From assembly GCA_021513695.1 (NCBI GenBank), contig CP084166.1, positions 416,001 to 480,000 on the forward strand: 64,000 nucleotides of DNA. Reading direction: 5' to 3'. Of this stretch, positions 25,119 through 64,000 are shown piece after piece. Source of the stretch: Candidatus Heimdallarchaeum aukensis. Lineage in GTDB: Archaea > Asgardarchaeota > Heimdallarchaeia > Heimdallarchaeales > Heimdallarchaeaceae. Positions within the stretch are counted from its first letter, which is position 1; the number at the start of each line of letters is the position of its first letter. The translations under genes and the position numbers were made by a program. The notes under the pieces are model-generated. The model did not search any database and was not told the DNA's origin. It saw only the letters and a program-made list of their open reading frames with translations.

Positions 25119-25259
25119 CTTTATTTCTCTTTTATAGTTGATACTTTTATTACAATGAACTTACTCACAATCTCTCTCCAAAAATATGAAATATAATCTT
25201 TCTTCCTAATGAATCAAACATTATTTATAATCTAATTTCACTTTTCTTTTTTCAATTTT

Positions 25260-25302
25260 AGAAAAATTTTTATTAAAGGTACAAAGATATGATTGAAGGG
25301 GT
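25260..25302 (+). promoter_or_regulatory. Conserved promoter/5' leader module of paralog 2
   Basis: It has the same AGAAAAATTTTTATTAAA box, the same ..GATATGATTGAAGGGGT leader and a TTG start at the same spacing as at 23021. Confidence 0.45.
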
Positions 25303-45535: not shown

Positions 45536-48505
45536 ATGAAAATAAAATCCATGAAATATAAAAAATATTTTTTCTTTGTACTTTTCACGGTCTTAGTTGT
45601 ATTCGCTTATCCACGAAGCTTTTACAACGAAGTTGAAGCAGGATATACACAAACAACTCCTATCAACATATATTCTGATTCAGACTTAGAAAGTTATTCA
45701 TTTCCTGGTACAGGAACTGAAGCTGACCCTTATATTATAGAAAATTATAACATCACAGTTACTAGTGGTTATGCTATTTCAATTAGAGCAACAACAAAAT
45801 ATGTCATTATAAGAAATAACTATATTATAGGGTCTGATACTGGCAATGGAATGTACATTTTTAGTGTTGCACCAAACACTGTTCATATAATAAATAACAC
45901 CGTTGTCAATGCTTATACTGGAATTTATGTAAATACTGAAGGACAAATGATAATAGAGAATAATACTGTAACAGGAGGAGAGTCTGCCTATTATTTCTCT
46001 TCAACTGGAAATATTAATTTTACTAACAATAAGGCAATCAATCCTAAAAAATATGGTTTAAGAGCTTATAATTTAAATAACTTCAGAATGGCTAATAGTA
46101 CTTTAATAGGCGCTGGAGTAGGTTTTTCTACAAGTAGTACATCCTTTTATGATAATTACTATTTTGATAACAATTCAATTAATAACAAGCCTTTGATGGT
46201 AGTTTATTCTTCATCAGATCTTGTTTTTGACAAAAATCAAAATGGTCAGATATTAATTATAGACAGCACGAACATCACAGTCAAAAATTATGTCTCAAGC
46301 GAAAATACTTTTGGAGTTTATTCCTACTATTCTGATAAAATAACAATAGAGGATAGTTTTTTTTCAAAAGCAGTTTCTTCAATTAAAGCAGAATATTCTT
46401 CAAATATTGAAATAAAGAATGTAAAAATTAGTAACACATACGAGTATGGAATGAATATTCGCAATATAGATGGAATTTCGATTGAAGATACTATAGTTGA
46501 AGATTCTAATAAAGGGATATATGCAAGAGGAATAAATAATTTAGAAATAACAAATACTACTTCCACTAATCATGAAAATGATGGCTTGTACCTGTGGTAT
46601 GTAAATAATGCAAATATTTCTAGTTCGTTTTTCGCAAATTGTAAGAACGGATTAGTTGCAAGAAGTTCAACTAACATAAGATTAGAAGAAAACTCAGCTT
46701 CAAACTGTAGTTATACAAGTTTTACTCTAATTTATCTTGAGAATGTAACAGTAAAAGATAACTTAATGGAATCTGGGATAAAACTTAACCATTACAACGT
46801 TGAATGGAGCTACGAATTCAGTAATAATACAATAAAAGGAAAACCTTTAGGTGTTTTTTATAATAAAACAGGGTTAACTATTGACTCAACTTATTCGCAA
46901 TTAATACTAGTAAATTGTACAGACTTTATAATCAATAATGCGTATTTTTCTCAAGTAGTAAGAGGAATTTACATTCTTTACGGAGAAAATATTTCTATAA
47001 ATAATATCTCGATGTACAACGTCTTTGAAGGTGGACTATTAGTAGAGTATTCCAAGAAAATAAGCATTCAAGATTTAAATGTAAATGGAGTAATAGGTAA
47101 TGAAGCTTATGGTATTTACACTTATAATGTAACTTCGGTGTTTCTTAATCATTCTATTTTTACACTGTGCGGAGATTATCCTTTTTATGGAGAAGAGATT
47201 GCAGATGCTATAATTTCTTATAATATATTTAATAATAGCACTAATAATGTGTTTTACATTTACAATGGCTTTAATCTTTCTATTTTTGGAAATGATTTTT
47301 TGTTTAATGATTATGCACTTTATGTTGAATTTTCAAACGAAATAGAATTCTACAACCTTGAATTAGAAATGGGAAATTGTTACTCTGAATGGAACGGTTC
47401 AACTAGATATCCTATTGAAACAGATAGTGGCTACATTTATGATGAATTTCCATTAAATGATACTGACAGAGATAAGCTTAACGACAGTTTAGAAGTGTAT
47501 AGTTACAATACTGACCCATTTCTTGCAGATACAGATTACGATATACTCAGTGATTATGACGAAATAATGAACTATGGAACTGACCCAAACTCGGTAGATT
47601 CAGATAATGATAATATGCCAGACAAATGGGAAATAGAAAATAATCTTAACCCAATCGAAGATGACTCCTCAGAAGATCCTGACGATGATGATTTGTCTAA
47701 CATAGAAGAATATAATTCACACACCAATCCCAATTCTGCTGATACAGATTCTGATGGTATGCCTGATGGTTGGGAAGTGGAAAATGAATTAAATCCTTTG
47801 ATAGATGATGCTGATGAAGACCCAGATAATGATGATCTAACTAATTTAGAAGAATACTCTAATAATACTGACCCTAACTCTGCAGATACAGATTCTGACG
47901 GTATGCCTGACAAATGGGAGGTAGATAATAATCTTGACCCAACTAAAGATGATGCTGATGAAGACCCAGATAATGATGATCTAACTAATTTAGAAGAATA
48001 CACTAACAACACAGACCCTAACACCAATGACACAGATGGTGATGGTATGTTTGATGGTTGGGAAGTAGATAATAGTCTTGATCCTCTAACTGATGATGCT
48101 GATGAAGATCCTGATAATGATGGACTAACAAATCTAGAAGAACATACAAACAATACTAACCCAAATGATGAAGATACGGATTCAGATGGTATGCCTGATG
48201 GATGGGAAGTGGAAAATGGATTAAATCCTCTGATAGATGATGCTGAGGAAGACCCAGATAATGATAGATTAACTAACATACAAGAATACTTGAATAACAC
48301 AGATCCCAACAATCCAGATACTGATGGAGATGGATATTCAGACTCTGAAGAAATAGAGAAAGGCTCTAACCCTACCGATGCTACAGATAAACCTCTTAAT
48401 TTGGGATTGATTCTTGGTTTATCCATTGGTATTCCAACTGTTCTTATTGCAGTCTTCTTATTTATAATGAAGAAAAAAGGTTTACTCTTCTTTAAGAAGA
48501 AGTAA
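45536..48505 (+). CDS. Large surface protein: extended right-handed beta-helix, five MPDxWE/TSP3-like Ca-binding modules, C-terminal TM anchor
   Basis: 989 aa. It has a signal-like N-terminus and many PbH1-type repeats (IINNTVVNAYTGIYV, IENNTVTGGESAYYF, ...). Five 48-aa modules follow (DTDSDGMPDGWEVENELNPLIDDADEDPDNDDLTNLEEY). The C-terminal TM is LILGLSIGIPTVLIAVFLFIM, followed by KKK. Confidence 0.75.
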   Translation: MKIKSMKYKKYFFFVLFTVLVVFAYPRSFYNEVEAGYTQTTPINIYSDSDLESYSFPGTGTEADPYIIENYNITVTSGYAISIRATTKYVIIRNNYIIGSDTGNGMYIFSVAPNTVHIINNTVVNAYTGIYVNTEGQMIIENNTVTGGESAYYFSSTGNINFTNNKAINPKKYGLRAYNLNNFRMANSTLIGAGVGFSTSSTSFYDNYYFDNNSINNKPLMVVYSSSDLVFDKNQNGQILIIDSTNITVKNYVSSENTFGVYSYYSDKITIEDSFFSKAVSSIKAEYSSNIEIKNVKISNTYEYGMNIRNIDGISIEDTIVEDSNKGIYARGINNLEITNTTSTNHENDGLYLWYVNNANISSSFFANCKNGLVARSSTNIRLEENSASNCSYTSFTLIYLENVTVKDNLMESGIKLNHYNVEWSYEFSNNTIKGKPLGVFYNKTGLTIDSTYSQLILVNCTDFIINNAYFSQVVRGIYILYGENISINNISMYNVFEGGLLVEYSKKISIQDLNVNGVIGNEAYGIYTYNVTSVFLNHSIFTLCGDYPFYGEEIADAIISYNIFNNSTNNVFYIYNGFNLSIFGNDFLFNDYALYVEFSNEIEFYNLELEMGNCYSEWNGSTRYPIETDSGYIYDEFPLNDTDRDKLNDSLEVYSYNTDPFLADTDYDILSDYDEIMNYGTDPNSVDSDNDNMPDKWEIENNLNPIEDDSSEDPDDDDLSNIEEYNSHTNPNSADTDSDGMPDGWEVENELNPLIDDADEDPDNDDLTNLEEYSNNTDPNSADTDSDGMPDKWEVDNNLDPTKDDADEDPDNDDLTNLEEYTNNTDPNTNDTDGDGMFDGWEVDNSLDPLTDDADEDPDNDGLTNLEEHTNNTNPNDEDTDSDGMPDGWEVENGLNPLIDDAEEDPDNDRLTNIQEYLNNTDPNNPDTDGDGYSDSEEIEKGSNPTDATDKPLNLGLILGLSIGIPTVLIAVFLFIMKKKGLLFFKKK
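47588..48307 (+). repeat. Five tandem 144-nt coding repeats (48-aa acidic Ca-binding modules)
   Basis: The period was measured from gatacagattctga at 47741 and 47885, a 144-nt offset. Five protein-level copies were read. The copies are diverged, not identical. Confidence 0.75.
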
Positions 48506-52313: not shown

Positions 52314-52551
52314 TTTTTTTTTTATTTTTAATTTTGTTATGATCTTAGACAATTAAAATATTCTTTTAAACTTTCGTTACAATATTTGATGAATTTGGGA
52401 AATTTGTATATTCTAATCCAATTAAACAAGAGTAAATAATAAAATTGCAATGAAAATCAATTACAATTAACTTTTGTTTAATTAAAGCTAGAAAATAGAT
52501 TATAATTTGTAAAAGATTGTTTAGGAAGTCTAAATAAAAAAAGAAAGGAAA

Positions 52552-54459
52552 TTAGTAGATTTTTTTCAGTTGTTTAAGGAGAGGAGTATAGATATCATAC
52601 TCTTCTTTTAGATCTTTTGCTATTATTAGTTCTTTCAGATTCTGTGCAGATTGTAAAATAAAAGTGGGTGCAGTACTCTCAATTAATGGATATTGTTTTG
52701 ATTTATATCCTGCTAAAACAGTATTGTTCTTTAGGCAAATAGAAGCCAATAGTTTAATTTCCTCTTCTTCGTTTAGTTCTTCTCCTTTTTCAAATAACCA
52801 GTTTATAGAACCTTTTTCTGCTATACTGCCTACCCAGATTAATAGAAGATAATCATAGATATCGTTAGGAAAGCCTAAACTGTTGTATTTGTTAAAAACA
52901 GAGAATAAATTAGCAAATTGTTCTACTTCTTTATTATCTTTACTTACTATCATTATAGAGATAAGAAAATCTTTTTGAACATCTGTGAGAGTATCTAAAA
53001 GCTCTTTCTTTATCTTTAACAATTCATCTTTCTTCTCTTTAATTTCTTCATAACTTTCATTGTTTATTTTGTAATTTCCAATTATCTCATCAAGTTGTTT
53101 TTTCCTTTCTTCTTCTAAACCTTCTAAATCTTTTGTATAATTTTCAATAATCTCTTTTAGAGTTTCTTTAGCTTCTTCTACTTCTTTCTCTGTAACTTCT
53201 GCATTAGTGATGGTCTTTCCTTGCATTGCAGCTTTTGTCTGTTTTTGCCAACTAAGTGCGTCTTTTAAACTTTTATCGTTTAATAAAGAGTTGATCATCT
53301 TTGCAACTATGTATTTAATTTCAACGATGGAATTAGCATCTCTTGTAGCTATTGAAAGAAATAGGTGTAAAACATTAGGCATCAAATTATAAGGATCAAT
53401 TTGTTGATTTCCTCTCAATGCACTAAAATTAAAGTTAGATAATGCCCATTCATATAAAGAACTTCCAACGAAGTTTGAAGGGGGATTAAGGGCAGAAAAT
53501 ATAGGTAAAGAAGTATACATGTTACCTATTGACAATAAAACATTATGCCAACCAAAGGTCGAAGAATCAAATTCTTTAATTCTTATTTCTTTTCCAGAGA
53601 TAAGGTATTCTTCAGTCAAATAATAAATTAAATGTTTATTTAAGCTGACTGAAGATAGAGAATCTGCTTCATATTTGGTCTCATTACTGTTTAATACAGA
53701 TATTAGCTCTATATTGTTAAATAATTCTGCTTGATTAGCGTCATCAAGTATTTCTTTTATTGATTCTTGGTTTTCAGGGTATAATGCTTCTAGAATGTGG
53801 TATATCCAGTGAATAATGTAAGCATAAACATTCTCATTTTGTTTAAGCACTTTTCTCCATTCAAACCATTGTTTTAGTCTATTTAGATAGATTTCACTCA
53901 TCTTTTCAATATCTGAATCACTTAATTCTTTTGTTGAATAACGCAATGGAAAGATTGAAACAGGTTCCTTATTATTAAACAGCACTTCTTTAATGTCTTT
54001 AATTAGTGTGTTAATAATTAGTTCAAGATCCATAATTGCATAACGTGAGATTACTTTTGCTTCTTTAAAATAATCAAAAGAGCAGCTTCCATTTCTCAAG
54101 AAAATGGGTTCATGAATGTAACTAACAATTTTATCAAAGAATTCTTTCCCCTTTTCATCTAATTGAGCAATAAGTTCTGATACTTCTTGAAAGATATAGG
54201 CATTAAGAAAAGCGTTAAACGCTGTTCCAATAATTTTTGCATTTGAAGCATAACTCTTAATAATTTTATTAATCTCTGGACTATTCTTTTTTATTTTACT
54301 TAACTCAAAGTCATCTGGAATCTTAACTAGTTCTTTATTACTATCTCGTGGCCTAAGAAATTTTCCTTCACTTTGAAAGACAAGTAGTTTGTTCTTTGTA
54401 TCCAAACCAAAAATAACTTCCTTGTCTAGCAATTTTCCTTCAAAAATTTTTATATCCAT
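52552..54459 (-). CDS. Large cytoplasmic hypothetical protein with a central coiled coil
   Basis: 635-aa uninterrupted ORF with no TM segment. It has a K/E-rich coiled-coil segment (EVTEKEVEEAKETLKEIIENYTKDLEGLEEERKKQLDEII). I recognise no motif. Confidence 0.5.
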   Translation of the reverse strand: MDIKIFEGKLLDKEVIFGLDTKNKLLVFQSEGKFLRPRDSNKELVKIPDDFELSKIKKNSPEINKIIKSYASNAKIIGTAFNAFLNAYIFQEVSELIAQLDEKGKEFFDKIVSYIHEPIFLRNGSCSFDYFKEAKVISRYAIMDLELIINTLIKDIKEVLFNNKEPVSIFPLRYSTKELSDSDIEKMSEIYLNRLKQWFEWRKVLKQNENVYAYIIHWIYHILEALYPENQESIKEILDDANQAELFNNIELISVLNSNETKYEADSLSSVSLNKHLIYYLTEEYLISGKEIRIKEFDSSTFGWHNVLLSIGNMYTSLPIFSALNPPSNFVGSSLYEWALSNFNFSALRGNQQIDPYNLMPNVLHLFLSIATRDANSIVEIKYIVAKMINSLLNDKSLKDALSWQKQTKAAMQGKTITNAEVTEKEVEEAKETLKEIIENYTKDLEGLEEERKKQLDEIIGNYKINNESYEEIKEKKDELLKIKKELLDTLTDVQKDFLISIMIVSKDNKEVEQFANLFSVFNKYNSLGFPNDIYDYLLLIWVGSIAEKGSINWLFEKGEELNEEEEIKLLASICLKNNTVLAGYKSKQYPLIESTAPTFILQSAQNLKELIIAKDLKEEYDIYTPLLKQLKKIY

Positions 54460-54639
54460 TTTTTTCCCCTTTTCTCGCTATTAATGAACATTTTGCAAAG
54501 TTTTTATTTGTTTGCTTGTATGACATACAATTTTAACTTCAAATAATAATTCTAAATGTTAATTTAAATTAGGTCCCTTTAAAAAATCTTAAAAAATAAA
54601 TAAGTTATTCATATTATCGATTATACAGAGAATCTAGAA

Positions 54640-55938
54640 ATGAATAAAGTAAATTATCTTTCAGAGAAAGGAATGTTCATCGAAAAAAATGTTAATCTTT
54701 CAGCAGGAACTCTTGCTTGGGGAAGTAAGGCAAGACAAAGAGCTAAAGAAGTTAAGGATTTTATAGACGCAACAATTGGCTCGGCAAAAAGTGATGAAGG
54801 AAAGTTATTTGCTTTTAAAACCTTTGAAGAGGAATTAAAAGGGTTACCAGCAGATAAAATGTTTGGTTATGCAAACGTTAGAGGACAAAAAAGATTTACA
54901 AGAGCTTGGATGGAAGATACATTAGAAACCTTTCCAAGTGAATATAGAGAAAAATCTCGTTTATTATCAACAGAACCTATAACAACTTGCGGCGGGATTA
55001 CAGGAGGATTAACTATTGCAGGTCAACTCTTTTTCGATAAAACAGATAATTTACTTGTTCCTAATTCAAGATGGAGTAATGTAGATAATTGTTTCTTCAA
55101 AAACCAACAGATAACAGAATTAAATTATAATCTGATTGACATAGAAGGAAATCTATCTTTTGATGACCTTATAGAGAAAATTAAACTTCTAGAAAAAGAA
55201 AATAAAAAAATTGGTATATACTTTAATTTTCCAAACAATCCCAGTGGTATAAGCCCCACTTTATCACAAATAAAAGAAATTCAAGAAACTTTAGAAGAAG
55301 TAAAAGTTCCAACAGTAATTATTTTAGACGATGCTTATGAAGGATATGTCTATTCTGATGATGTTTTAGATCATTCGATTTACCCTTATTTAATCGGGCT
55401 AAATGAGAATGTCCTAACAATTAAAGTAGACGGTATGAGTAAAAGATATTCTGCTTATGGAGTAAGATTAGGTACAATTATGCTAGGTTTTGGAAAAGAA
55501 GTTGATGAGAAAGAAAAAGAAGATTATCGCGAGCTGATAGCTAAAGGTGCAAGGTCTTTAACTTCTAGTTCTCCAAGAGGTCCTCAAGAAGCTTTTGCCA
55601 ACATTTCAGAAGACAAAAAGAAGAAAGAACAACTGAAAAAAGAAAAAGAAGAATTAAAGAATCTATTAAAAGAGAGGTATTTAGAGATAAAAGCTTTAAT
55701 AAAAGATAAAGAGCATGATACTATTCACCCTGTCGACTTTAATAGTGGTTTCTTCGGTTATTGGATAATTAAGAACGATCTTCTATCATTCGATTTAGGA
55801 GAAAAGTTGTTAGAAAGAGGTTTAGGAACTGTACCATTTTACAACAATACAACAGGATTAAATGGTATAAGATTAGCTTTTTGCTCAATAAAAAGAGATG
55901 ATCTCGAAAAAGCAATTGATATTCTTTATTCAATCTAA
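54640..55938 (+). CDS. Class I/II pyridoxal-phosphate-dependent aminotransferase
   Basis: 432 aa. It has NFPNNPSGISPT, DDAYEGYVY, and a PLP-lysine context GMSKRYSAYGVRLG (SKxxxxxGxRxG). Confidence 0.7.
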   Translation: MNKVNYLSEKGMFIEKNVNLSAGTLAWGSKARQRAKEVKDFIDATIGSAKSDEGKLFAFKTFEEELKGLPADKMFGYANVRGQKRFTRAWMEDTLETFPSEYREKSRLLSTEPITTCGGITGGLTIAGQLFFDKTDNLLVPNSRWSNVDNCFFKNQQITELNYNLIDIEGNLSFDDLIEKIKLLEKENKKIGIYFNFPNNPSGISPTLSQIKEIQETLEEVKVPTVIILDDAYEGYVYSDDVLDHSIYPYLIGLNENVLTIKVDGMSKRYSAYGVRLGTIMLGFGKEVDEKEKEDYRELIAKGARSLTSSSPRGPQEAFANISEDKKKKEQLKKEKEELKNLLKERYLEIKALIKDKEHDTIHPVDFNSGFFGYWIIKNDLLSFDLGEKLLERGLGTVPFYNNTTGLNGIRLAFCSIKRDDLEKAIDILYSI

Positions 55939-56111
55939 CTCTTTTCTTTTTTTTAATTTCTTTTTCACTTTTCTACTTTTCCACTTTTAAAAAAAGATAG
56001 TTGTTGACCAAATAAGTAATTTATTACCCAATAGAACAAATTTAAGATGAGTCAATATTCTATTTAATTTTAGAAAAAATTTATAAAATAGCTATTAAAC
56101 AAAAAGTTGAA

Positions 56112-57629
56112 ATGAATTTGCTAAAAACTGTAGTAAAAATAACTCCTGTCTCAATATTGCGTAAAGTTCAATCATTTTCACTAAAAAAACCTAGCAGAAT
56201 TAAATTTTTATTCAAAGTTTCTAATGAAGAAGCTTTAGTCGAGATAGGAAAAAAACTGGCTTATAATAATTTCAAAAAAGTATCAAAGAATACACCCGCT
56301 TACAAGAAGTTCTTGGAGAGTAATGGAGTCAATGCAAAGAAAGTTAATAGCTTTGAAAAATTTATTGAAATTGTTCCTACAACAGACAAAAACAACTATA
56401 TTGCTAAATATCCGATGGATGAACTCTGTATCAACGGAGACCTTTCTCCACTAGCAATAATTGACAGAAGCTCAGGATATTCGGGTAAATCCATTTACTT
56501 TCCGATATCCAAAAAAGAAAACCTCTTTGATGAACTAGTAATGGCAAATTGGTTTAAAACACAATTCAATATCTCAACTAAAGATTTACTCATAAATTGT
56601 TTCTTTTTAGGTTCATGGGTAGCAGGAATAAAGATAGGAAACTCAGCTAGAATGATAGGAACTACAATAAATACAGGACCTCGTTTAGATGAAATTGTAG
56701 AAACAATATTCGATCTCGATAGATACTATGAAAGAATAATTATTTTATCCTATCCGCCCTTTGCAATGATGCTTGTTTACAAACTAATAGAAGCAGGATA
56801 TGACTTTGAAGGTAAAAACTTCTTGTTTTTGGTAGGAGGAGAAGGATATAATCTGGAGTTCAAACAAAAATTGCAAGAACTTACAAAAAACAGTAGCGAA
56901 ATTTTTGGAGCTTTTGGTAGTACTGAAACAGGAATAAGAATCGGAAATGAAACAGCTGATACACACATGCTTAAACAAATGGCTGCATCAAACAAGGAAT
57001 TCTGCAAGAAAATGTTTGGAAAAGAATTCCCACCAAATATCTTTCAATATGACCCAACAAATGTTCATTTATTCACAAAGAAATATAAAAACGGAAAAGA
57101 CGCTCTGGTTTTCACTTCAGCATCTAAAAGAGCAGTTCCTGTAATTAAATATAACCTAAAAGATGAAGGAGGAGTACTAACACAAAAAGAAGTAAAGAAA
57201 ATAATAAAAGAAGTATTTAACATGGATTTCAATTTTAAACTACCTTTACCAATCTTTTATGTTTATGGAAGAGTAGATGATACAATATCCATAGCAAGTG
57301 CAATATTCTATCCTCATCAAATAAAATCAGGACTGTTGGAGTTCATGGATAATGTAATAGATTACAGATTGGAATCAAAAACAACAGATACAGGAGTAAT
57401 CTATCCTGCAGTTCATGTAGCGGTAAAAGATAAAAGAAAAGCTTCCAAAAAGAAAATAGAAGAAAGTATTTACAAAACGTTACTAAAATACAGTAGCACC
57501 TACTCAGAATCAATAAAAGAAGGAATTGCAGATAGACCTATAGTTTTCCTATACACAGAAAAAGACTTCCCTTTTGAACTAAACGAAATAACAAAAAATC
57601 AAGTAAAAGAAAAACATTTAGTAAATTAA
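56112..57629 (+). CDS. Adenylate-forming enzyme of the PaaK/F390-synthetase/GH3-like type (tentative)
   Basis: 505 aa. A P-loop-like motif RSSGYSGKSIYFP (compare SSGTTG/SSGTSxG) and a GAFGSTETG motif are present. The size and layout fit ANL-superfamily ligases. Confidence 0.45.
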   Translation: MNLLKTVVKITPVSILRKVQSFSLKKPSRIKFLFKVSNEEALVEIGKKLAYNNFKKVSKNTPAYKKFLESNGVNAKKVNSFEKFIEIVPTTDKNNYIAKYPMDELCINGDLSPLAIIDRSSGYSGKSIYFPISKKENLFDELVMANWFKTQFNISTKDLLINCFFLGSWVAGIKIGNSARMIGTTINTGPRLDEIVETIFDLDRYYERIIILSYPPFAMMLVYKLIEAGYDFEGKNFLFLVGGEGYNLEFKQKLQELTKNSSEIFGAFGSTETGIRIGNETADTHMLKQMAASNKEFCKKMFGKEFPPNIFQYDPTNVHLFTKKYKNGKDALVFTSASKRAVPVIKYNLKDEGGVLTQKEVKKIIKEVFNMDFNFKLPLPIFYVYGRVDDTISIASAIFYPHQIKSGLLEFMDNVIDYRLESKTTDTGVIYPAVHVAVKDKRKASKKKIEESIYKTLLKYSSTYSESIKEGIADRPIVFLYTEKDFPFELNEITKNQVKEKHLVN

Positions 57630-57795
57630 CAAACCCTTTTTTCTTTTTATTGATAAACAACTTTCTACCTTGCGTAAATAGTTTAGTTTATTTATAGAGA
57701 ATTGAAATAAAACAGAACTAAACATCATAAAAAGTTTTATCAAAAAATGAAATCGTGTTTTAAAATTTAAAAATAAAGAAAAAAAGAAATTTTCA

Positions 57796-60700
57796 TTATT
57801 CTTTCTTCTTACCTTCACCTATAATTTCCCAATCACGATATTGGCTAAGTAAACGGTCAATCTCATTATCAATATCAATAGTTTCTTTTCTTACAAAAGA
57901 TTGCTCAAGTTCATAATATTCACCAATATCAGGGTTAGCTTGTAGGATATCTTTGAGATACTCTTCAACAACAGATTTAGAAAGACCGCTAAGTTCAGAA
58001 ATTCGTTGCAAAGTAACAGAAATATTAGGTTTGAATTGGTTAAGCAAGTTAATGAGAGTTTTATAATCTTCTTCTCTCTTCAATGCTTTCATGTACTCAG
58101 ATTTAGTTTTATAGCCTTGAGCAGAGATTTCTTCCCACTCAGACTTAGTTTTAAAACCTAACTTCATTGCTGTATACATTTCTTTGATAGAAGAAAAACC
58201 AAAAGAAGAAGCTCTTTTACGAAGATAAAGTCTAATTCCTATAAAAGTCAAAAAAGCAACAGCACCAGTAACAATGACAGCACCTGTAACTATTGAAATA
58301 ATTGTGAGTATTCTTTTAACTTTCAATTTGTGTTCTAAATTCGATTTAGGATTGAGAGGATCAAAACCGTTTTCTATTTCTTTACCATCATTTTCTCCAT
58401 CTCCATCAGTGTCAGAATTGTTAGGGTCTGTTCTATAAATCTTTACTTCTTCATAATCAGTTAATCCATCACTATCAGAATCACTACTTGTGGGGTTAGT
58501 AAAATATTCTTTAATCTCTTCATAATCAGTTAATCCATCATTATCTGTATCAGTACTATTAGCAAACGTACCAACATTAAATTCTTCAAGATTGGTTAAA
58601 CCATCACCGTCTAAATCAGAGTTGGAATCATCTGTTAATGGGTCTAATCCAGAATGAACTTCATAACCATCAGGCATACCATCTTCGTCAGTGTCAGAGT
58701 TGTTAGCGAAAGTGCCAAGAGTATATTCCTCAAAATTAGATAAATTATCGTTATCGAAATCAGAATTACTATCATTAACAATTGCGTTTGTACCTGTTTG
58801 AACTTCCCACAAATCATCCATCAAGTCACCATCAGTATCAGTACTATTAGCAAACGTACCAACATTAAATTCTTCAAGATTGGTTAAACCATCACCGTCT
58901 AAATCAGAGTTGGAATCATCTGTTAATGGGTCTAATCCAGAATGAACTTCATAACCATCAGGCATACCATCTTCGTCAGTGTCAGAGTTGTTAGCGAAAG
59001 TGCCAAGAGTATATTCCTCAAAATTAGATAAATTATCGTTATCGAAATCAGAATTACTATCATTAACAATTGCGTTTGTACCTGTTTGAACTTCCCACAA
59101 ATCATCCATCAAGTCACCATCAGTATCAGTACTATTAGCAAACGTACCAACATTAAATTCTTCAAGATTGGTTAAACCATCACCGTCTAAATCAGAGTTG
59201 GAATCATCTGTTAATGGGTCTAATCCAGAATGAACTTCATAACCATCAGGCATACCATCTTCGTCAGTGTCAGAAACCAAAGGATCAGTACCGTAAGTGT
59301 TAACCTCTTCTCCATCAGTTAAACCATCACTGTCAGTGTTAGAAGTAGTAGGATCAGTTGAATAAACATTGATTTCACTAAAATCATCTAATCCATCACT
59401 ATCAGTATCAGAAGTAGTAGGATCAGTTGAATAATTTACTACTTCATCAAAATCATCCAATCCATCACTGTCAGTATCAACCTTACTCATATCTGTCCCT
59501 AAAATCTCCTCCTCATGGTCAAACAATCCATCATTATCAGTATCTAAATATTCCCCTGTCCTTTGATTGTTAACCGAATCAGTATAGAGTGGAGCATATC
59601 CAAGGCCAATAGAATTCCAAATAGATACTCCCATGTTGGAAACATCACCGTACCCGGCAAGTATTTCTAAGGAAGAATCGTTATCGACATCAGCAACAGC
59701 TAAAGACCAAAAAGTACCACTTGTCGTTTTTGGCCAACCAGGAACAACAGTACCATCACTATTCCAAATAACCACTCCACCACCAAAGTCAATACGATAC
59801 CCGGCAATTATCTCAAGTGCTGAATCGTTATCGACATCTGCAATAGTTAAAGAATGAACTTCACCACTTGTTTCACTTGTTGTTTGTGGCCAACCAGGAA
59901 CAACAGTACCATCACTATTCCAAATAATTACGCCACCACTGTAGTATTCACCGTACCCAGCAATTATTTCTAATGTTGAATCATCATCAACATCTGCAAC
60001 AGCTAAAGAATAAACATAACCACTTGTTGTTTTTGGCCAACCAGCAACAACACTACCATCACTATTCCAAATAACTACTCCACCACCATATCCTGCAATT
60101 ATTTCTAATGTTAAATCATCATCAACATCTGCAACAGCTAAAGAACGAACATCATCACTTGTTTTTGGCCAACCAGGAACAACAGTACCATCACTATTCC
60201 AAATAATTACTCCACCACCATATCCTGCAATTATTTCTAATGTTGAATCATCATCAACATCTGCAACAGCTAAAGAATAAACATAACCACTTGTTGTTTT
60301 TGGCCAACCAGCAACAACACTACCATCACTATTCCAAATAACTACTCCACCATAACCAGCATCACGATATCCTGCAATTATTTCTAGTTCTGAATCACCA
60401 TCAACATCAGCAAGAGCTAAAGAATAAACATAACCACTTGTTGTTTTTGGCCAACCAGCAACAACACTACCATCACTATTCCAAATAACTACTCCACCAT
60501 CATCAACATATCCTCCTCCTGCGACTATCTCGAGTTTTAAATCACCATCAACATCAGCAAGAGCTAAAGAATAAACATCTCCGCTTGTAGTTTTAGGCCA
60601 ACCAGGAATAACAGTACCATCACTATTCCAAATAACTACTCCACCATAATACCCTGCAAGTATTTCTAGTTCTGAATCACCGTCCACATCTCCAACAGCT

Positions 60701-62244
60701 AAAGAATAAACATAACCGCTTGTAGTTTTTGACCAAGAAAATAAAGTTGAATAATAATTAATAAAAGAGTTATAGCGACTGTTACTTGTATTATAGTTAG
60801 TTGTTTTCCAATCAAAAACATTATCACAGCTAATTTGAGCAGCTAAAATATAACCATAATAATCTGAATAGTATAAATATTTGCCTTGAATAGTAATTAT
60901 TCTGTTTAAATATAAATAACCTGATAATATTGCTTCATTCGTGGATGAAGAATAAAAATGCTTTGCATAAACATTTGAAGAGGAACAATATAGTAATTCC
61001 CAATTATAATCATTGTCCACATCGGTAAGTATAGGTTCTTCTTGAATATTTAGACCTAAGGAACTACTATACTCATTTAATATCTCTCCGGTGAAAGAAA
61101 AACTTTTTTGTTCTCCGTTTGTTGATAGAGTAACTATTTCATACTCTCTATCCCAATTAATATCAACAATTATAGGACCTAACCACTCTGAATCACCTGA
61201 AGAAGTAAGCCAAGAATGAATAGTAGTACCATTATTTGATAAAAGATAAAGATTTCTTCCTGCAGGGCAAACAATGTCTATTTTACTGTCTTTGTTGATG
61301 TCTGCAACTGCAAGAGGATGAGTAATAGGCTCTGTTAAATCTTTAGGAAAATTTGAGATGATGTCTCCATTTCCTTTCCACGCGTAAACTTTTCCATCGG
61401 TACTACCTACAATAACATCTTTGGAACCATCATTGTCTACATCAGCTAAAACTGGTGCAACTATTACTTCTCCTCCTGTTGTTTTAGGCCAACCAGCTAA
61501 AAGATTTCCACTTCCATCAAATGCATAAACTTTTGAACTGTTAGATCCAACCACTATCTCATTTTTATCGTCTCCATTAATATCTCCAACTGCTAATGTT
61601 TCTTCTACTGGTCCCTCACAATTGACTGGCCAACCTGGTATACTAGTACCATCACCGTAAAATGCGTAAACCGAACCATTAGCTGCTCCTATAATTATTT
61701 CTTCAGTTGCACTATTTCCATCTATATTAGCTAACATTGGTGTAGATATTAAAGCAACACCTATGTTTTTTCCATCTATCCAATTTGAAGATTCTGTACC
61801 ATCTATCTCGTAAACTCTTATTATGCCATTTAACGTTCCTACAACAATTTCATAATTTCCATCTCCGTCTATATCCCCTGCTCCAGGTCCTCCTTTTAAC
61901 TCTCCCCCTACATATATTGGCCAACTACCAAAAGAATTGAGAGATTGAGAGATTTTTTTACCTGAAAAATTGTTATCTAAAAGTTCAGAACGGGAAGAAG
62001 TTGTTTTGATCTCTATGTCGTTGTTCGCTTCTTCAACTCTTTGTAAATCTGTGTGATAATCATTATTTTGACTTACATTATTTTGACTTACATTACTTTG
62101 TTGTGAATCTAAAATGATATTATTAAAATCTTTCATCACTAGAGAATTTGTAGTCATTGAACTTGTAATTATAATTAGTAATGCTACTACCATTCCTGAA
62201 TATTTTGATTTCCCTCTAAAACTTTTTTTTATTCGTTTCATCAT
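57796..62244 (-). CDS. Giant integrin-like surface protein: two FG-GAP/VCBS beta-propeller arrays, TSP3-like Ca-binding repeats, TM, about 150-aa cytoplasmic tail
   Basis: 1482 aa with a signal/anchor MVVALLIIITSSMTT. Divergent FG-GAP repeats are present (GDIDGDGNYEIVVGT, GDINGDDKNEIVVGS, ADVDNDGSKDVIVGS). At least 8 near-identical blades follow (GGVVIWNSDGSVVAGWPKTTSGYVYSLAVADVDDDSTLEIIAGYG). TSP3 repeats follow (DTDSDGLDDFDE, DTDEDGMPDGYEV). The TM is ILTIISIVTGAVIVTGAVAFLTFIGI. The tail has GFKTKSEWEE / GYKTKSEYMK and an HTH-like ISVTLQRISELSGLSKSVVEEYLKDIL. Confidence 0.8.
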   Translation of the reverse strand: MMKRIKKSFRGKSKYSGMVVALLIIITSSMTTNSLVMKDFNNIILDSQQSNVSQNNVSQNNDYHTDLQRVEEANNDIEIKTTSSRSELLDNNFSGKKISQSLNSFGSWPIYVGGELKGGPGAGDIDGDGNYEIVVGTLNGIIRVYEIDGTESSNWIDGKNIGVALISTPMLANIDGNSATEEIIIGAANGSVYAFYGDGTSIPGWPVNCEGPVEETLAVGDINGDDKNEIVVGSNSSKVYAFDGSGNLLAGWPKTTGGEVIVAPVLADVDNDGSKDVIVGSTDGKVYAWKGNGDIISNFPKDLTEPITHPLAVADINKDSKIDIVCPAGRNLYLLSNNGTTIHSWLTSSGDSEWLGPIIVDINWDREYEIVTLSTNGEQKSFSFTGEILNEYSSSLGLNIQEEPILTDVDNDYNWELLYCSSSNVYAKHFYSSSTNEAILSGYLYLNRIITIQGKYLYYSDYYGYILAAQISCDNVFDWKTTNYNTSNSRYNSFINYYSTLFSWSKTTSGYVYSLAVGDVDGDSELEILAGYYGGVVIWNSDGTVIPGWPKTTSGDVYSLALADVDGDLKLEIVAGGGYVDDGGVVIWNSDGSVVAGWPKTTSGYVYSLALADVDGDSELEIIAGYRDAGYGGVVIWNSDGSVVAGWPKTTSGYVYSLAVADVDDDSTLEIIAGYGGGVIIWNSDGTVVPGWPKTSDDVRSLAVADVDDDLTLEIIAGYGGGVVIWNSDGSVVAGWPKTTSGYVYSLAVADVDDDSTLEIIAGYGEYYSGGVIIWNSDGTVVPGWPQTTSETSGEVHSLTIADVDNDSALEIIAGYRIDFGGGVVIWNSDGTVVPGWPKTTSGTFWSLAVADVDNDSSLEILAGYGDVSNMGVSIWNSIGLGYAPLYTDSVNNQRTGEYLDTDNDGLFDHEEEILGTDMSKVDTDSDGLDDFDEVVNYSTDPTTSDTDSDGLDDFSEINVYSTDPTTSNTDSDGLTDGEEVNTYGTDPLVSDTDEDGMPDGYEVHSGLDPLTDDSNSDLDGDGLTNLEEFNVGTFANSTDTDGDLMDDLWEVQTGTNAIVNDSNSDFDNDNLSNFEEYTLGTFANNSDTDEDGMPDGYEVHSGLDPLTDDSNSDLDGDGLTNLEEFNVGTFANSTDTDGDLMDDLWEVQTGTNAIVNDSNSDFDNDNLSNFEEYTLGTFANNSDTDEDGMPDGYEVHSGLDPLTDDSNSDLDGDGLTNLEEFNVGTFANSTDTDNDGLTDYEEIKEYFTNPTSSDSDSDGLTDYEEVKIYRTDPNNSDTDGDGENDGKEIENGFDPLNPKSNLEHKLKVKRILTIISIVTGAVIVTGAVAFLTFIGIRLYLRKRASSFGFSSIKEMYTAMKLGFKTKSEWEEISAQGYKTKSEYMKALKREEDYKTLINLLNQFKPNISVTLQRISELSGLSKSVVEEYLKDILQANPDIGEYYELEQSFVRKETIDIDNEIDRLLSQYRDWEIIGEGKKKE
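58547..59275 (-). repeat. 2.5 copies of an apparently identical 288-bp tandem repeat inside the giant surface protein gene
   Basis: ggtctaatccagaatgaact recurs at 58641, 58929 and 59217, with offsets of exactly 288 nt. Reading the three copies side by side, I found no mismatch until divergence at about 59276. Each unit encodes 96 aa (DEDGMPDGYEVHSGLDPLTDDSNSDLDGDGLTNLEEFNVGTFANSTDTDGDLMDDLWEVQTGTNAIVNDSNSDFDNDNLSNFEEYTLGTFANNSDT). Confidence 0.85.
59640..60720 (-). repeat. Imperfect tandem coding repeats, unit about 132-156 nt, encoding beta-propeller blades
   Basis: ggccaaccagcaacaacactaccatcactattccaaataactac recurs at 60035, 60302 and 60449. Variants with ccaggaacaacagtacc lie in between. 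At least 8 units are visible at protein level. Confidence 0.6.
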
Positions 62245-62491
62245 TTTTTTGAATTACTTATATTTTATAAAATTTTTTTTAATAATAATTCTCTAAGAAC
62301 ACGTTTAAATTTTAAAAAAATGTCACTTCGCTACTTCTCACAAGTCTGTTTCAATTTACCATATCTATATTATAGACACTTTTTTAGGAAATTTATGACG
62401 GGAATGCAAATAATTACGTATTGGTTATTCAAATGCTTCTATTTTCAATCATATCCGATATCTTTAAATTTTAAAATTCTTTTTTGCAAAT

Positions 62492-63616
62492 ATGATTTCT
62501 TATTACTCTATAGGTTTATTCTTATTTGAGCAACTTACTTTTATTACTAGCAGCATTATTTTGTTTAGAACTTACAAGCAGACTCGCTTTCTTTCTCACT
62601 TCCTTTTGGGTACTAGCTATCTTTTGTGGGTTTTCAATTCTATAGGAAGATTCATTACTTCTTTTTTCAGTGAAAATGTAATAATCTTCGACAATACTCG
62701 ACTTATTTCACTTATTTGGATCATTGTTAACTGTTTGTTAATTCTTGGAATGATTTTCGTTTTCTATTCTTTTATTTATTTCAAGACTAACAGATTACAT
62801 CCTATAATAAACATAGTTAGTTTTTTAGGAGGAGCATTATTTCTTGCATTTATAATACCTGATTTCACTGAATTGACTTACTCTGAACAACTTGGAGCTT
62901 GGTCTGCGAAATATAGTATTTGGATATCTGTTCTTGTTATTCCAATGCTTTTATTCTTCATTTTTTCTTTTATTCTTCCCATTTCTACAAAAATTGTTAG
63001 AACTACTGACAAAGATATTCGTAAGCAACTATTTGTGCAGATAGTCGGACTTATTATCGTAATTATCTGGGCATTTTTCGCTGGTTTTACTAGCAATGCT
63101 GTTCTTCGAGCTGTTCGTCCTTTCCTTATGGCAACAGGCTGGTTTATCTGGTCTTTAACTTTGATAATGGATCCTTTCAACATAATGATTTCTAACGCTA
63201 AAATTAGTCAATTATTGATTACAACTACTAGCGGTTTACCAATCTATTATGATGACTTCACTTTTGATGAAAAAGAAGTAAAAAGTGAGATTTCTGCAGA
63301 TCTAGCTTCAGGTTTAATTTCAGGAGTTACCCAAGCTCTAGAGCAAATAATGGAAAGAAAATCGGAATTAAACACTGTAGTATATAAAGACAAAGTTATA
63401 GGTACTACTGCAGTAGGCTATCTTCAAGCATATATTTTTGGAGAAAGATTTGATAAAACTTTAGAAACTGTATTAAATGTTCTTCTAAGAGAAATACAAG
63501 ATAATCCAGCTCTTGCTTTAAAAATCACTCCCAACTTTGTAGATCTAGATGGGGCTTCAGGAAAAATCTTGAAACTCATAGTTGAAAAAAATCTAAAGAG
63601 AATATTAGTAATTTAA
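62492..63616 (+). CDS. Polytopic membrane protein (about 7 TM) with a C-terminal soluble domain of unknown function
   Basis: 374 aa with seven hydrophobic segments. These are followed by about 130 aa of soluble sequence (ITTTSGLPIYYDDFTF...DLASGLISGVTQALEQIM...AVGYLQAYIFGERF). Confidence 0.5.
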   Translation: MISYYSIGLFLFEQLTFITSSIILFRTYKQTRFLSHFLLGTSYLLWVFNSIGRFITSFFSENVIIFDNTRLISLIWIIVNCLLILGMIFVFYSFIYFKTNRLHPIINIVSFLGGALFLAFIIPDFTELTYSEQLGAWSAKYSIWISVLVIPMLLFFIFSFILPISTKIVRTTDKDIRKQLFVQIVGLIIVIIWAFFAGFTSNAVLRAVRPFLMATGWFIWSLTLIMDPFNIMISNAKISQLLITTTSGLPIYYDDFTFDEKEVKSEISADLASGLISGVTQALEQIMERKSELNTVVYKDKVIGTTAVGYLQAYIFGERFDKTLETVLNVLLREIQDNPALALKITPNFVDLDGASGKILKLIVEKNLKRILVI

Positions 63617-63775
63617 TTAATTTGCATTCTTTTCTTCCTTTTTCTTTCTTATGTTCTATATTTAGCTTTTATTATACTAGGTAAATATACGAAACTATCA
63701 TATCTTTTAATATAAGTTCAAAATAGTTGATTAATAGGAAATAAACTTTTAAATAACCAATTTTAGAAATAAATA

Positions 63776-64000
63776 TGATTGCACCAACTATTGATTCTTT
63801 ATGGTCTGCAGCTTTGGGATATTTTTTTGGTTCAATACCCTTATCTTTTATAATCGTCAAAGTTTTTCTTGACGGGTTAGATATTCGAACAGTTGGATCA
63901 AAAAATGTCGGTGGAAGAAATGTTATTAGATCTTTCAAGTATAAAGGAAAGTCAAATAATGTTGCTTATACTATGGGGTTAATTGTAGCTATCTTTGATA
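63776..64000 (+). CDS. PlsY-like (glycerol-3-phosphate acyltransferase family) membrane protein, 5' part, truncated by the window end
   Basis: This ORF is not in the supplied track because it runs off the window. My hand translation from the ATG at 63776 is [58 protein letters not shown].... It matches the PlsY N-terminal pattern GYLLGSIPfgxlixkxxxGxDIRxxGSGNxGATNVxR. Confidence 0.6.

Follow-up and report, generated by a model that had tools for sequence, protein, structure and literature searches.

The gene at positions 57796–62244, on the reverse strand of the analysed window (the whole stretch of 64,000 nucleotides), is real and encodes a large cell-surface protein of Heimdallarchaeum, in which two beta-propeller-type domains, an acidic stalk of calcium-binding repeats and a single transmembrane (TM) segment are followed by a folded tail. 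This tail belongs to a winged-helix (WH) family for which neither Pfam nor NCBIfam has a model, and the tail family is the new part of the finding. We infer that the protein is probably a surface adhesin or receptor with an integrin-like layout, the tail of which would dock on a cytoplasmic partner that it shares with other surface proteins. A role in surface contact or as a receptor, as put forward in the original prediction, is a reasonable one to infer. The resemblance to integrins is one of layout only, i.e. analogy and not homology.

The open reading frame starts with ATG, comprises 1,482 amino acids and a stop codon, exactly matching the length and bounds initially given for it, and is unbroken across 4.4 kb. 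Window positions 52371–64000 are syntenic with the genome of Ca. Heimdallarchaeum endolithica PR6, with 89–93% DNA identity, which bears out the Asgard host that had been proposed. The closed PR6 genome, reached through a genome scan with a 12-sequence WH alignment, holds a syntenic ortholog of 1,381 aa and a paralog of 1,455 aa. Another complete ortholog (P0008) has the parts in the same order; the contig that carries it shows almost no synteny with the window. Four other open reading frames of the window pair a stalk of thrombospondin type 3 (TSP3) repeats and a TM segment with other heads (beta-helix/NosD, SBBP propeller), for a total of five such frames within 64 kb. The combination of double propeller, TSP3 stalk, TM segment and WH tail was not seen outside Heimdallarchaeaceae in the homologue searches.

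A Kyte-Doolittle scan of the 1,482-aa protein gave only two hydrophobic peaks, at aa 17–37 and aa 1307–1341. The first (peak value 1.85) lies within aa 1–37 (62134–62244), where a basic n-region (7 K/R, no D/E) precedes a hydrophobic h-region; the segment is conserved in orthologs and is predicted to be either a signal peptide of the Sec type or a signal anchor at the N-terminus. Next comes a low-complexity linker (aa 38–104; 61933–62133) that includes an NVSQN repeat, encoded by a 15-bp tandem repeat at 62061–62100, of which the PR6 ortholog has one unit more. The second peak (2.36) marks the single TM segment (58222–58326; core at approximately aa 1311–1336, followed by RLYLRKR), which is kept in P0008, P0125, P0126 and the PR6 paralog. 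The signal or anchor and the single TM segment of the original prediction are both recovered in this way, the assignments being made by hydropathy and conservation. Basic residues flank the TM segment on both sides, so the inside/outside call rests on the N-terminal signal and the sole later TM segment. On these grounds, the protein is predicted to be a type I membrane protein, with the acidic ectodomain outside (net charge of −33 for the first propeller, −43 for the second and −112 for the stalk) and the structured tail (−1) in the cytoplasm.

Both repeat arrays are modelled as beta-propeller-type domains, with blade numbers taken from the sequence repeats. Pfam FG-GAP_3 (PF13517) matches 12 stretches with a score of 89.1 bits (cut-off 26.9), and FG-GAP (PF01839) is barely above its cut-off (23.3 vs. 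22.1). The first domain (aa 105–472; 60829–61932) consists of seven divergent repeats of approximately 47 aa each, with D-x-D-x-D calcium motifs at aa 122, ~173, 219, 266, 313, 359 and 406, and a C-terminal four-strand unit without the motif; it forms an all-beta block in the AF2 model (pLDDT about 60–92, dropping toward the C-terminal end of the domain) and has Foldseek matches to tandem propellers. After an inter-propeller linker (aa 473–497; 60754–60828; pLDDT < 50 at model residues 375–399), the second domain (aa 498–890; 59575–60753; pLDDT mostly > 90) contains exactly eight near-identical blades of approximately 45–49 aa, with motifs within aa 517–850. In the DNA, this array is a 147-bp tandem repeat (5.7 copies, 84% identity), the blades of which show concerted evolution; the blade count is eight in 7 of 8 relatives. 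The ectodomain model as a whole (pLDDT 83.2) comprises two all-beta domains, and the structure search with this model returned 985 PDB matches (E ≤ 1e-3), with proteins made of tandem propellers and the designed Cake propellers at the top of the list. The AF2 model, accordingly, favours the propeller over the non-propeller fold that had been named as the adverse outcome. The repeat counts first suggested, about seven divergent FG-GAP repeats and at least eight similar blades, hold up, the latter number being exactly eight, and the Pfam annotation that had been advised places FG-GAP, FG-GAP_3 and TSP3_bac (PF18884) all above their cut-offs.

The stalk (aa 891–1300; 58345–59574) carries about 17 TSP3-type calcium-binding repeats. 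TSP3_bac scores 53.7 bits (cut-off 25) over 8 stretches, and 17 D-x-D-x-D-G-type motifs recur with a period of approximately 23 aa between aa 901 and 1290, in agreement with the TSP3-like repeats noticed at the outset. Within the stalk, a 288-bp tandem repeat at 58543–59274 is present in 2.5 copies with 99% identity, and for this reason no part of the assembly is less certain than the exact number of TSP3 copies; the PR6 ortholog differs in this number (2.5 units of 96 aa in the window vs. about 1.5).

The tail comprises the 141 aa after the TM segment (aa 1342–1482); the sequence following the TM segment reads RLYLRKRASSFGFSS... Three 14-aa 'GF' repeats (aa 1346–1389; 58078–58209; G-F/Y-x-S/T-x-x-E-W/Y/M...), namely GFSSIKEMYTAMKL, GFKTKSEWEEISAQ and GYKTKSEYMKALKR, can be read from the sequence, and related proteins have up to 8 stretches matching the GF motif in exhaustive phmmer searches. 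The AF2 model of the tail (pLDDT 88.5) shows an H1-b1-H2-H3-b2-b3 order followed by a long helix, which is a winged-helix topology. The predicted WH domain spans aa 1390–1453 (57886–58077), with H1 at 1391–1403, b1 at 1409–1411, H2 at 1412–1419, H3 at 1423–1436, b2 at 1441–1444 and b3 at 1449–1452. The C-terminal helix (aa 1454–1482; 57799–57885; helical at model residues 69–91) ends in the conserved motif ID.LL..Y..WE..GEGKKKE, common to the 45 family members that end there. The structured tail of the original prediction is, thus, present with 141 instead of about 150 aa, its G(F/Y)KTKSE(W/Y) motif occurs in three copies rather than two, and the segment described as HTH-like is a full winged helix in the model. 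The tail is under strong purifying selection, with dN/dS of 0.08 compared to 0.29–0.54 in the parts of the ectodomain. It contains no cysteine. A KKxx-type sorting signal at the GEGKKKE end was considered but is not claimed, given that the lysine register varies across the WH family.

Word-indexed homologue searches, whether started from the tail or from the WH profile, yielded only 4–6 close fragments, and the family emerged by exhaustive phmmer, in which the tail retrieved 119 representatives. The WH domain is carried by 95 fetched proteins including the window protein, i.e. approximately 95 cluster representatives, and all named members are Heimdallarchaeia. Among the 94 other representatives, a TM segment is found upstream of the WH domain in 35, TSP3 repeats in 11 and a RING-H2 finger downstream in 37. 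The module terminates many membrane proteins with differing ectodomains and also occurs in soluble LRR, TPR and RING proteins. When 65 WH domains were scanned against Pfam and NCBIfam, no family matched more than 3 of them. An HMM search of all six-frame ORFs found no further family members in the window, and the beta-helix paralogs at 23064–27288 have long tails that are unrelated to the WH tail. We found no description of the window protein, the WH family or the GF repeats in the literature.

In the proposed explanation, the ligand of the propellers would be external, be it a glycan, a protein or another cell, and the calcium-stiffened stalk of approximately 400 aa would set the distance from the membrane at which the ligand is bound. 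The WH tail would act as a module for protein-protein docking or oligomerisation rather than as a DNA binder, and would link the window protein and other surface proteins to a common cytoplasmic partner. No recurrent partner was detected in the gene neighbourhoods of WH-family members. In structure searches, the WH domain is equally near to DNA-binding and protein-binding winged helices, and no specific partner can be named. A broader version, whereby the WH tail serves the whole lineage for docking or hetero-oligomerisation and WH-bearing RING-H2 proteins use it to recognise diverse Heimdallarchaeial surface receptors (FG-GAP, WD40, beta-helix and multi-pass), is speculative and on the whole unlikely. 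In a cultured Asgard archaeon, an ordered S-layer is missing and many surface proteins protrude from the cell instead. Asgard cells appear to wear a varied coat of such proteins in place of an ordered S-layer, and the cell-cell contacts that figure in models of eukaryogenesis are presumed to depend on them (PMC9834061). The window gene is a concrete, well-modelled Heimdallarchaeum instance of such a protein. Furthermore, a conserved WH module that is absent from domain libraries ties differing ectodomains to one intracellular logic, with RING-H2 fusions in paralogous proteins; should this module turn out to serve for docking, it would become possible to test directly for outside-in coupling and perhaps for a ubiquitin-dependent handling of Asgard surface proteins.

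The adhesin or receptor interpretation has to be weighed, above all, against a passive role in the envelope or glycocalyx, in which the propellers and stalk would form a protective or spacing layer, with the tail merely anchoring or oligomerising the protein. The recurrence of the stalk-plus-TM design in five frames of the window, the 20 N-x-S/T sequons of the ectodomain, the dense surface proteins of Asgard cells without an ordered S-layer (PMC9834061) and the fast, concerted evolution of the blades, as is often seen in exposed structural or antigenic surfaces, are all compatible with such a role. However, a purely structural anchor would not need the constraint observed in the tail, a WH module common to soluble LRR, TPR and RING proteins would be needless, and calcium-binding propellers are typically ligand-binding heads. 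We consider the passive role a minority possibility, clearly less probable than a receptor.

A membrane-anchored ectoenzyme, with one or both propellers catalytic (e.g. of a polysaccharide lyase or hydrolase type), appears improbable. Eight-bladed calcium propellers are known from PL11 rhamnogalacturonan lyases, which counts in favour of an enzyme, as do the match to Pfam Beta-prop_CGLA, the lambda-carrageenase propeller (31.5 bits vs. a cut-off of 26.8), the match to Beta-prop_ACSF4 (E = 9.5e-13, yet below its cut-off) and the peptidase fusions in many homologues. However, both Beta-prop matches fall within stretches that also give the generic FG-GAP signal, no catalytic motif was found, the top structural matches are scaffolding propellers, and near-identical, concertedly evolving blades better suit a repetitive binding surface than a single tuned active site.

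The winged helix raises the question whether the protein is a membrane-tethered transcription factor, the tail of which would bind DNA, either while still at the membrane or once set free by proteolysis, thereby coupling an external signal to gene expression. The weak Pfam matches to HTH_IclR and HTH_40 point in this direction. However, the net charge is zero or negative for the WH core in 75% of the family and for the wing in 86%, and the invariant residues G52, F61 and R25 sit in the wing and core and not in a basic recognition helix. Moreover, fusions of the WH domain to RING-H2, LRR and TPR are typical of protein-interaction modules, and no protease site or partner was seen. DNA binding by the WH domain therefore seems unlikely, and the complete scenario of a tethered regulator very unlikely.

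Integrin alpha subunits have one seven-bladed FG-GAP propeller, thigh and calf legs, a membrane-proximal GFFKR sequence and an obligate beta partner (beta-I/VWA with MIDAS). Like these, the window protein has D-x-D-x-D-G calcium loops in an FG-GAP propeller towards its N-terminus, a predicted type I topology, one TM segment and a cytoplasmic tail; together with the FG-GAP match just above its cut-off and a host lineage near eukaryotes, this could suggest a true integrin alpha homolog, i.e. one partner in a heterodimeric adhesion receptor that signals in both directions and is ancestral to the integrins of eukaryotes. However, there are two propeller domains instead of one (seven repeats plus the additional four-strand unit, then eight blades), the stalk is built of TSP3 repeats where integrins have the Ig-like thigh, calf-1 and calf-2 legs, and a folded WH domain takes the place of the short GFFKR peptide tail, with no GFFKR after the TM segment. 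Neither the integrin leg and tail families nor Integrin_alpha gave a Pfam match at E ≤ 1, and no VWA or integrin-beta family was detected in the four neighbouring genes scanned (window positions 52552–57629 and 62492–63616). The nearest relatives beyond Heimdallarchaeaceae are bacterial FG-GAP_3/VCBS proteins with peptidases and T9SS domains. Homology to integrin alpha is, hence, slightly more improbable again than a tethered regulator: of the integrin-like architecture that had been proposed, the layout of propellers, calcium repeats, TM segment and tail stands, whereas descent from a common integrin ancestor does not. Integrin repeats in Asgard archaea have been reported previously (Liu et al. 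2021, as cited in PMC9258230 and PMC9197732); the notion of an 'archaeal integrin' in the sense of homology should not spread from FG-GAP repeats alone.

An assembly artefact, whether a chimeric or a collapsed repeat gene, is scarcely credible: although the frame contains the 288-bp repeat and the 147-bp array, and fragmentary MAG copies (P0005–P0007 and P0009) stop inside the TSP3 repeats at contig ends, the frame is intact, the blade DNA is just 84% identical, and the closed PR6 chromosome, with an ortholog in the same gene order and a paralog, both matching in domain order, is the ground for rejecting misassembly and shows that the gene is not the chimera that the original prediction had asked to be excluded. 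The uncertainty is limited to the TSP3 copy number.

Compared with known systems, the blades are of the common prokaryotic FG-GAP_3 type (GWP...AD.DGD..EI), found in thousands of prokaryotic proteins. Prokaryotic FG-GAP_3/VCBS propeller proteins share the blade consensus (P)GWP...S.AvAD.DGDG.lEIv.G...G.vy.w..DG and the predicted propeller fold; among 8,000 candidates scored, 2,665 blade relatives were obtained at E ≤ 1e-5, mostly bacterial and, in contrast to the window protein, with S8 peptidases, T9SS sorting domains, PKD domains or the like as fusion partners. The stalk resembles Myxococcus MtsD (NF047639; 1.6e-21) and CglD (NF033765; 2.9e-16), as well as the type 3 repeats of eukaryotic thrombospondin/COMP, in that all have acidic D-x-D-x-D-G-x-x-D calcium-binding arrays in extracellular adhesion or cohesion proteins, whereas they differ from the window protein in their remaining domains, their anchoring and their host. 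The MtsD and CglD matches are confined to the TSP3 region and score far below the equivalog cut-offs (76.2 vs. 800 and 58.5 vs. 400, respectively), so that only the repeat type is held in common with these proteins.

For the WH domain and the helix that follows, the best matches in a Foldseek search of the PDB are the winged helices of PCI proteins, with Rpn6 at 5e-3. PCI-domain proteins (Rpn6/PSMD11, CSN2, eIF3 subunits) likewise have a winged helix and then a long helix, which they use for protein-protein assembly. However, the helical-repeat part of the PCI domain (PF01399) is absent here, and all sequence matches are non-significant: PF01399 has a sub-threshold match in 2 of 65 members, and when the WH profile was run against PDB sequences, no match reached significance, with Rpn6 (E = 0.5) ranking first among real proteins. 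Archaeal membrane kinases carry a C-terminal PCI-like winged helix for which a role as an oligomerisation module has been proposed (PMC10936438).

The tail has counterparts in the RING-H2 proteins of Heimdallarchaeia (e.g. P0128, P0131 and P0136, where Pfam zf-RING_2 is above its cut-off, and the TPR-WH-ZnR-RING genes of L005 and L006), the homologous WH domains of which are 30–55% identical to that of the window protein; GF repeats and an upstream TM segment are often present in these proteins as well. Next to the WH-RING genes in L004–L006 are genes for an Arf-family GTPase and for LRR, SPFH and HEAT proteins; ubiquitin, E1 or E2 genes were not found beside them. In the 37 RING-bearing proteins, the WH domain lies directly ahead of a Zn-ribbon and a RING-H2 finger, whereas in the window protein, this position is taken by the helix and GEGKKKE; the C3H2C3 RING-H2 finger is confined to other WH-family members, and the window protein, which ends after the WH domain and helix, therefore lacks an E3-like module.

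The minus-strand ORF at 57796..62244 starts with ATG and encodes a protein of 1482 aa, in which a hydropathy scan detected only two hydrophobic segments, aa 17-37, preceded by a basic n-region, and aa 1307-1341 (hydropathy peak 2.36). Pfam matched FG-GAP_3 (89.1 bits, cut-off 26.9, 12 stretches), FG-GAP (23.3 vs. cut-off 22.1) and bacterial TSP3 repeats (TSP3_bac, 53.7 vs. cut-off 25, 8 stretches). By motif mapping, aa 105-430 contain 7 divergent repeats of ~47 aa each, aa 505-890 exactly 8 repeats of ~45-49 aa each, and aa 901-1290 17 D-x-D-x-D-G motifs with a period of ~23 aa; in the DNA, a 147-bp tandem repeat (5.7 copies, 84% identity) underlies the second blade array, and a 288-bp repeat (2.5 copies, 99% identity) part of the TSP3 zone. 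Thus, the N-terminal signal/anchor, the approximately 7 divergent FG-GAP-type repeats, the TSP3-like DxDxDG repeats and the single TM of the original prediction all hold, as does the HTH-like tail segment, which AlphaFold2 models as a winged helix (WH). The similar blades, put at 'at least 8', number 8, whereas the tail, indeed structured, has 141 rather than ~150 residues after the TM, and its motif, described as duplicated, is repeated in three consecutive 14-aa units (GFSSIKEMYTAMKL, GFKTKSEWEEISAQ, GYKTKSEYMKALKR). The overall architecture, with a signal/anchor, two calcium-loop propellers, a TSP3 stalk, a TM and a folded WH tail, can be assigned with high confidence.

An AlphaFold2 model of the ectodomain (aa 99-905, 40-sequence alignment, mean pLDDT 83.2) consists of two all-beta domains, one at aa ~108-470 (block pLDDT ~60-92, lower toward the C-terminal end) and the other at aa ~498-881 (pLDDT mostly >90), joined by a low-confidence linker (aa 473-497). 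A Foldseek comparison of the model with the PDB yielded 985 matches (E <= 1e-3), led by tandem beta-propeller proteins (SSU-processome WD proteins, DDB1, SF3B3 and Gemin5) together with designed 'Cake' propellers, which argues against a non-propeller fold. The ectodomain is accordingly described as two predicted propellers, the blade numbers being those of the sequence repeats. The blades are of the ordinary prokaryotic FG-GAP_3 type: among 8000 candidates scored, 2665 matched at E <= 1e-5, most of them bacterial fusions with peptidases, T9SS or PKD domains. With the 1381-aa ortholog in the closed genome of Ca. Heimdallarchaeum endolithica PR6, propeller 1 shares 91% identity (dN/dS 0.29) and the second array, which changes fast in sequence, only 74% (dN/dS 0.54). 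For 7 of the 8 blades of the second array (window 59575-60753, compared with the PR6 locus L002), the nearest blade is one of the same protein and not any PR6 blade; blades 4 and 6 share an identical 28-aa core, and 8 blades are found in 7 of 8 relatives. The blades of the second array thus undergo concerted evolution with a fixed blade count, as would be anticipated for a closed ring of 8 blades whose exposed surface is repetitive.

The stalk carries a net charge of -112 and 11 of the 20 N-x-S/T sequons of the ectodomain. In NCBIfam, it matched the TSP3 regions of Myxococcus MtsD and CglD, far below the cut-off, and an MtsD/CglD equivalog was rejected. Four further ORFs in the window, at 15395-17251 (-), 23064-25118 (+), 25303-27288 (+) and 45536-48505 (+), combine a signal peptide and a variable head, either an SBBP propeller or a NosD/right-handed beta-helix, with a TSP3 stalk and a TM. 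The stalk plus TM resembles a display cassette in general use in the host genome, and these ORFs provide supporting context for the favored reading given below. The tandem paralogs at 23064-27288 have the TM at approximately aa 385 and cytoplasmic tails of ~280 aa that are unrelated to the WH tail. Elsewhere in the window, a 1929-aa ORF at 2656-8445 (-), about twice the usual length of UvrA, appears UvrA-like at both termini (ABC ATPase motifs).

No Pfam family matched the tail at threshold. An exhaustive phmmer search with the tail against 1.84 billion representatives (E <= 1e-3) retrieved 119 proteins. Two sub-modules account for the matches, singly or together: the GF repeats, at query aa 2-50, and a domain of ~65-90 aa, at query aa ~50-135. 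When the fetched proteins were searched with an iterated HMM, 95 of them, counting the window protein, carried this second domain. AlphaFold2, run on a 65-sequence alignment (pLDDT 88.5, pTM 0.77), predicts the topology H1-b1-H2-H3-b2-b3 followed by a long C-terminal helix, and we therefore assign this domain, on the model, as a winged helix; a PCI domain identity was rejected. Relative to the PR6 ortholog, the tail shows 98.5% identity and the lowest dN/dS of all parts of the protein (0.08), and is therefore strongly constrained.

Of the 94 representatives besides the window protein, a TM lies upstream of the WH in 35 and TSP3 repeats in 11; 45 end, like the window protein, in a helix motif ID.LL..(Y/F)..(W/F)E....GK, whereas 37 instead carry a Zn-ribbon and a RING-H2 finger, zf-RING_2 being above the Pfam cut-off in three tested members (P0128, P0131 and P0136). 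N-terminal partners include WD40 + TSP3 + TM, beta-helix + TM, multi-pass membrane domains, LRR, TPR and HEAT. The modular family of the WH tail is lineage-specific: each member that is named is from Heimdallarchaeaceae, 'Heimdallarchaeota' or Hodarchaeales, and one extra genome match has an Asgard label at kingdom level only. As far as members are named, the WH-RING family seems limited to Heimdallarchaeia. Pfam and NCBIfam hold no model for the WH part, and no description of the WH tail family, the GF repeats or the RING-H2 link was found in Pfam, NCBIfam or the searchable literature.

Several members merit separate mention. The Zn-ribbon and RING-H2 combination also occurs in P0132, P0141, P0144, P0146 and others, and in genes at L005 1611-3443 and L006 4699-6498, the WH often following TPR, LRR or multi-pass membrane domains; RING protein identity was rejected for the window protein itself. 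Four proteins from Heimdallarchaeota and Hodarchaeales (P0150 and P0155, on one 370-kb contig, P0173 and P0198) combine a signal peptide, WD40 propellers, TSP3, a TM and the WH tail, so that their WD40 repeats would apparently be extracellular, which is unusual. In a Heimdallarchaeota MAG, two adjacent WH-family genes (L004 5389-6255 and 6290-7003), one with an N-terminal TM anchor, GF repeats and a predicted helical spacer, the other with LRR repeats, adjoin another LRR protein and an SPFH/Band-7 protein. At the C-termini of 45 members (window aa 1459-1482), G.GKK-like basic residues come after the conserved motif ID.LL..(Y/F)..(W/F)E and close the chain; the likeness to a di-lysine sorting signal is superficial, the lysine register being variable. 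The GF repeats of the window protein (58078-58209 (-), aa 1346-1389; L-G-F-x-T/S-x-x-E-W-x-x-A...) recur ~5-12 times in tandem in P0133, P0142, P0185, P0195, P0204, P0210 and P0211, and GF-repeat proteins include apparent bacterial lipoproteins (signal peptide and Cys lipobox) with the repeats predicted to be extracellular; no Pfam family matched the two repeat-rich proteins scanned, P0133 and P0142.

The reading we favor, as probable, is a surface adhesin or receptor whose WH tail docks on a common cytoplasmic partner; the adhesin or receptor function taken by itself has about an even chance of being correct. The propellers would form a ligand-binding head, kept off the membrane by a calcium-stiffened stalk, and the tail, as a protein-protein docking or oligomerisation module, may couple this and many other surface proteins to the same partner. 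A cultured Asgard archaeon lacks an ordered S-layer and bears many protruding surface proteins (PMC9834061), and for a PCI-like WH that ends archaeal membrane kinases, a role as an oligomerisation module has been put forward (PMC10936438). That the common WH lets WH-RING ligases recognise surface receptors is a speculative extension. A passive envelope component seems a rather unlikely alternative, and an ectoenzyme a distinctly unlikely one. For a membrane-tethered DNA-binding regulator, the WH fold would be the basis, but the charge is acidic or neutral in the WH core of 75% of members and in the wing of 86%, and the invariant residues (G52, F61 and R25) are structural, which argues against nucleic-acid binding and makes this reading very improbable.

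Slightly more improbable still is a true integrin homolog. The integrin-like architecture originally proposed stands as a layout but not as family membership: the protein contains neither integrin leg domains nor a GFFKR motif and matches no integrin-specific Pfam family, and none of the four neighbouring genes scanned matched a beta-subunit family. FG-GAP repeats with calcium motifs are present, in two predicted propellers, one of them 8-bladed by repeat count. On the features tested, membership in the integrin family fails.

An assembly artefact is the least credible explanation, and chimerism of the gene is excluded because the same parts occur in the PR6 ortholog, in a 1455-aa PR6 paralog ~90 kb away, where their order is the same, and in P0008, a Heimdallarchaeaceae MAG ortholog that is complete at 1206 aa. 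When one genome per species was scanned with the WH-domain pattern, the closed PR6 chromosome CP084167.1 gave a match, and window 52371-64000 is colinear with that locus (DNA identity 89-93%), the common gene order being 374 aa, propeller gene, 505 aa, 432 aa and 635 aa. The window is thus from a near relative of PR6, plausibly Ca. H. aukensis, described in the same study (PMC8813620). The only soft point of the assembly is the TSP3 copy number, the PR6 ortholog having one 96-aa unit fewer. At 62061-62100, the N-terminal linker contains NVSQN units encoded by a 15-bp tandem repeat; with one further unit in the PR6 ortholog, this amounts to a small copy-number polymorphism. Among the neighbours whose order is kept in PR6, those at 56112-57629 (+) and 52552-54459 (-) encode soluble proteins of 505 and 635 aa, and that at 62492-63616 (+) a 374-aa multi-pass membrane protein, none with a Pfam match at the thresholds used.

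Among known families, the window protein belongs to the FG-GAP_3 and TSP3_bac repeat families, and its tail is of winged-helix fold. Liu et al. 2021, as cited in PMC9258230 and PMC9197732, had earlier reported integrin repeats from Asgard archaea. The window protein is a new combination of domains from known repeat types, and its novelty lies in the WH tail family of Heimdallarchaeia, with the GF repeats and the link to RING-H2 fingers.
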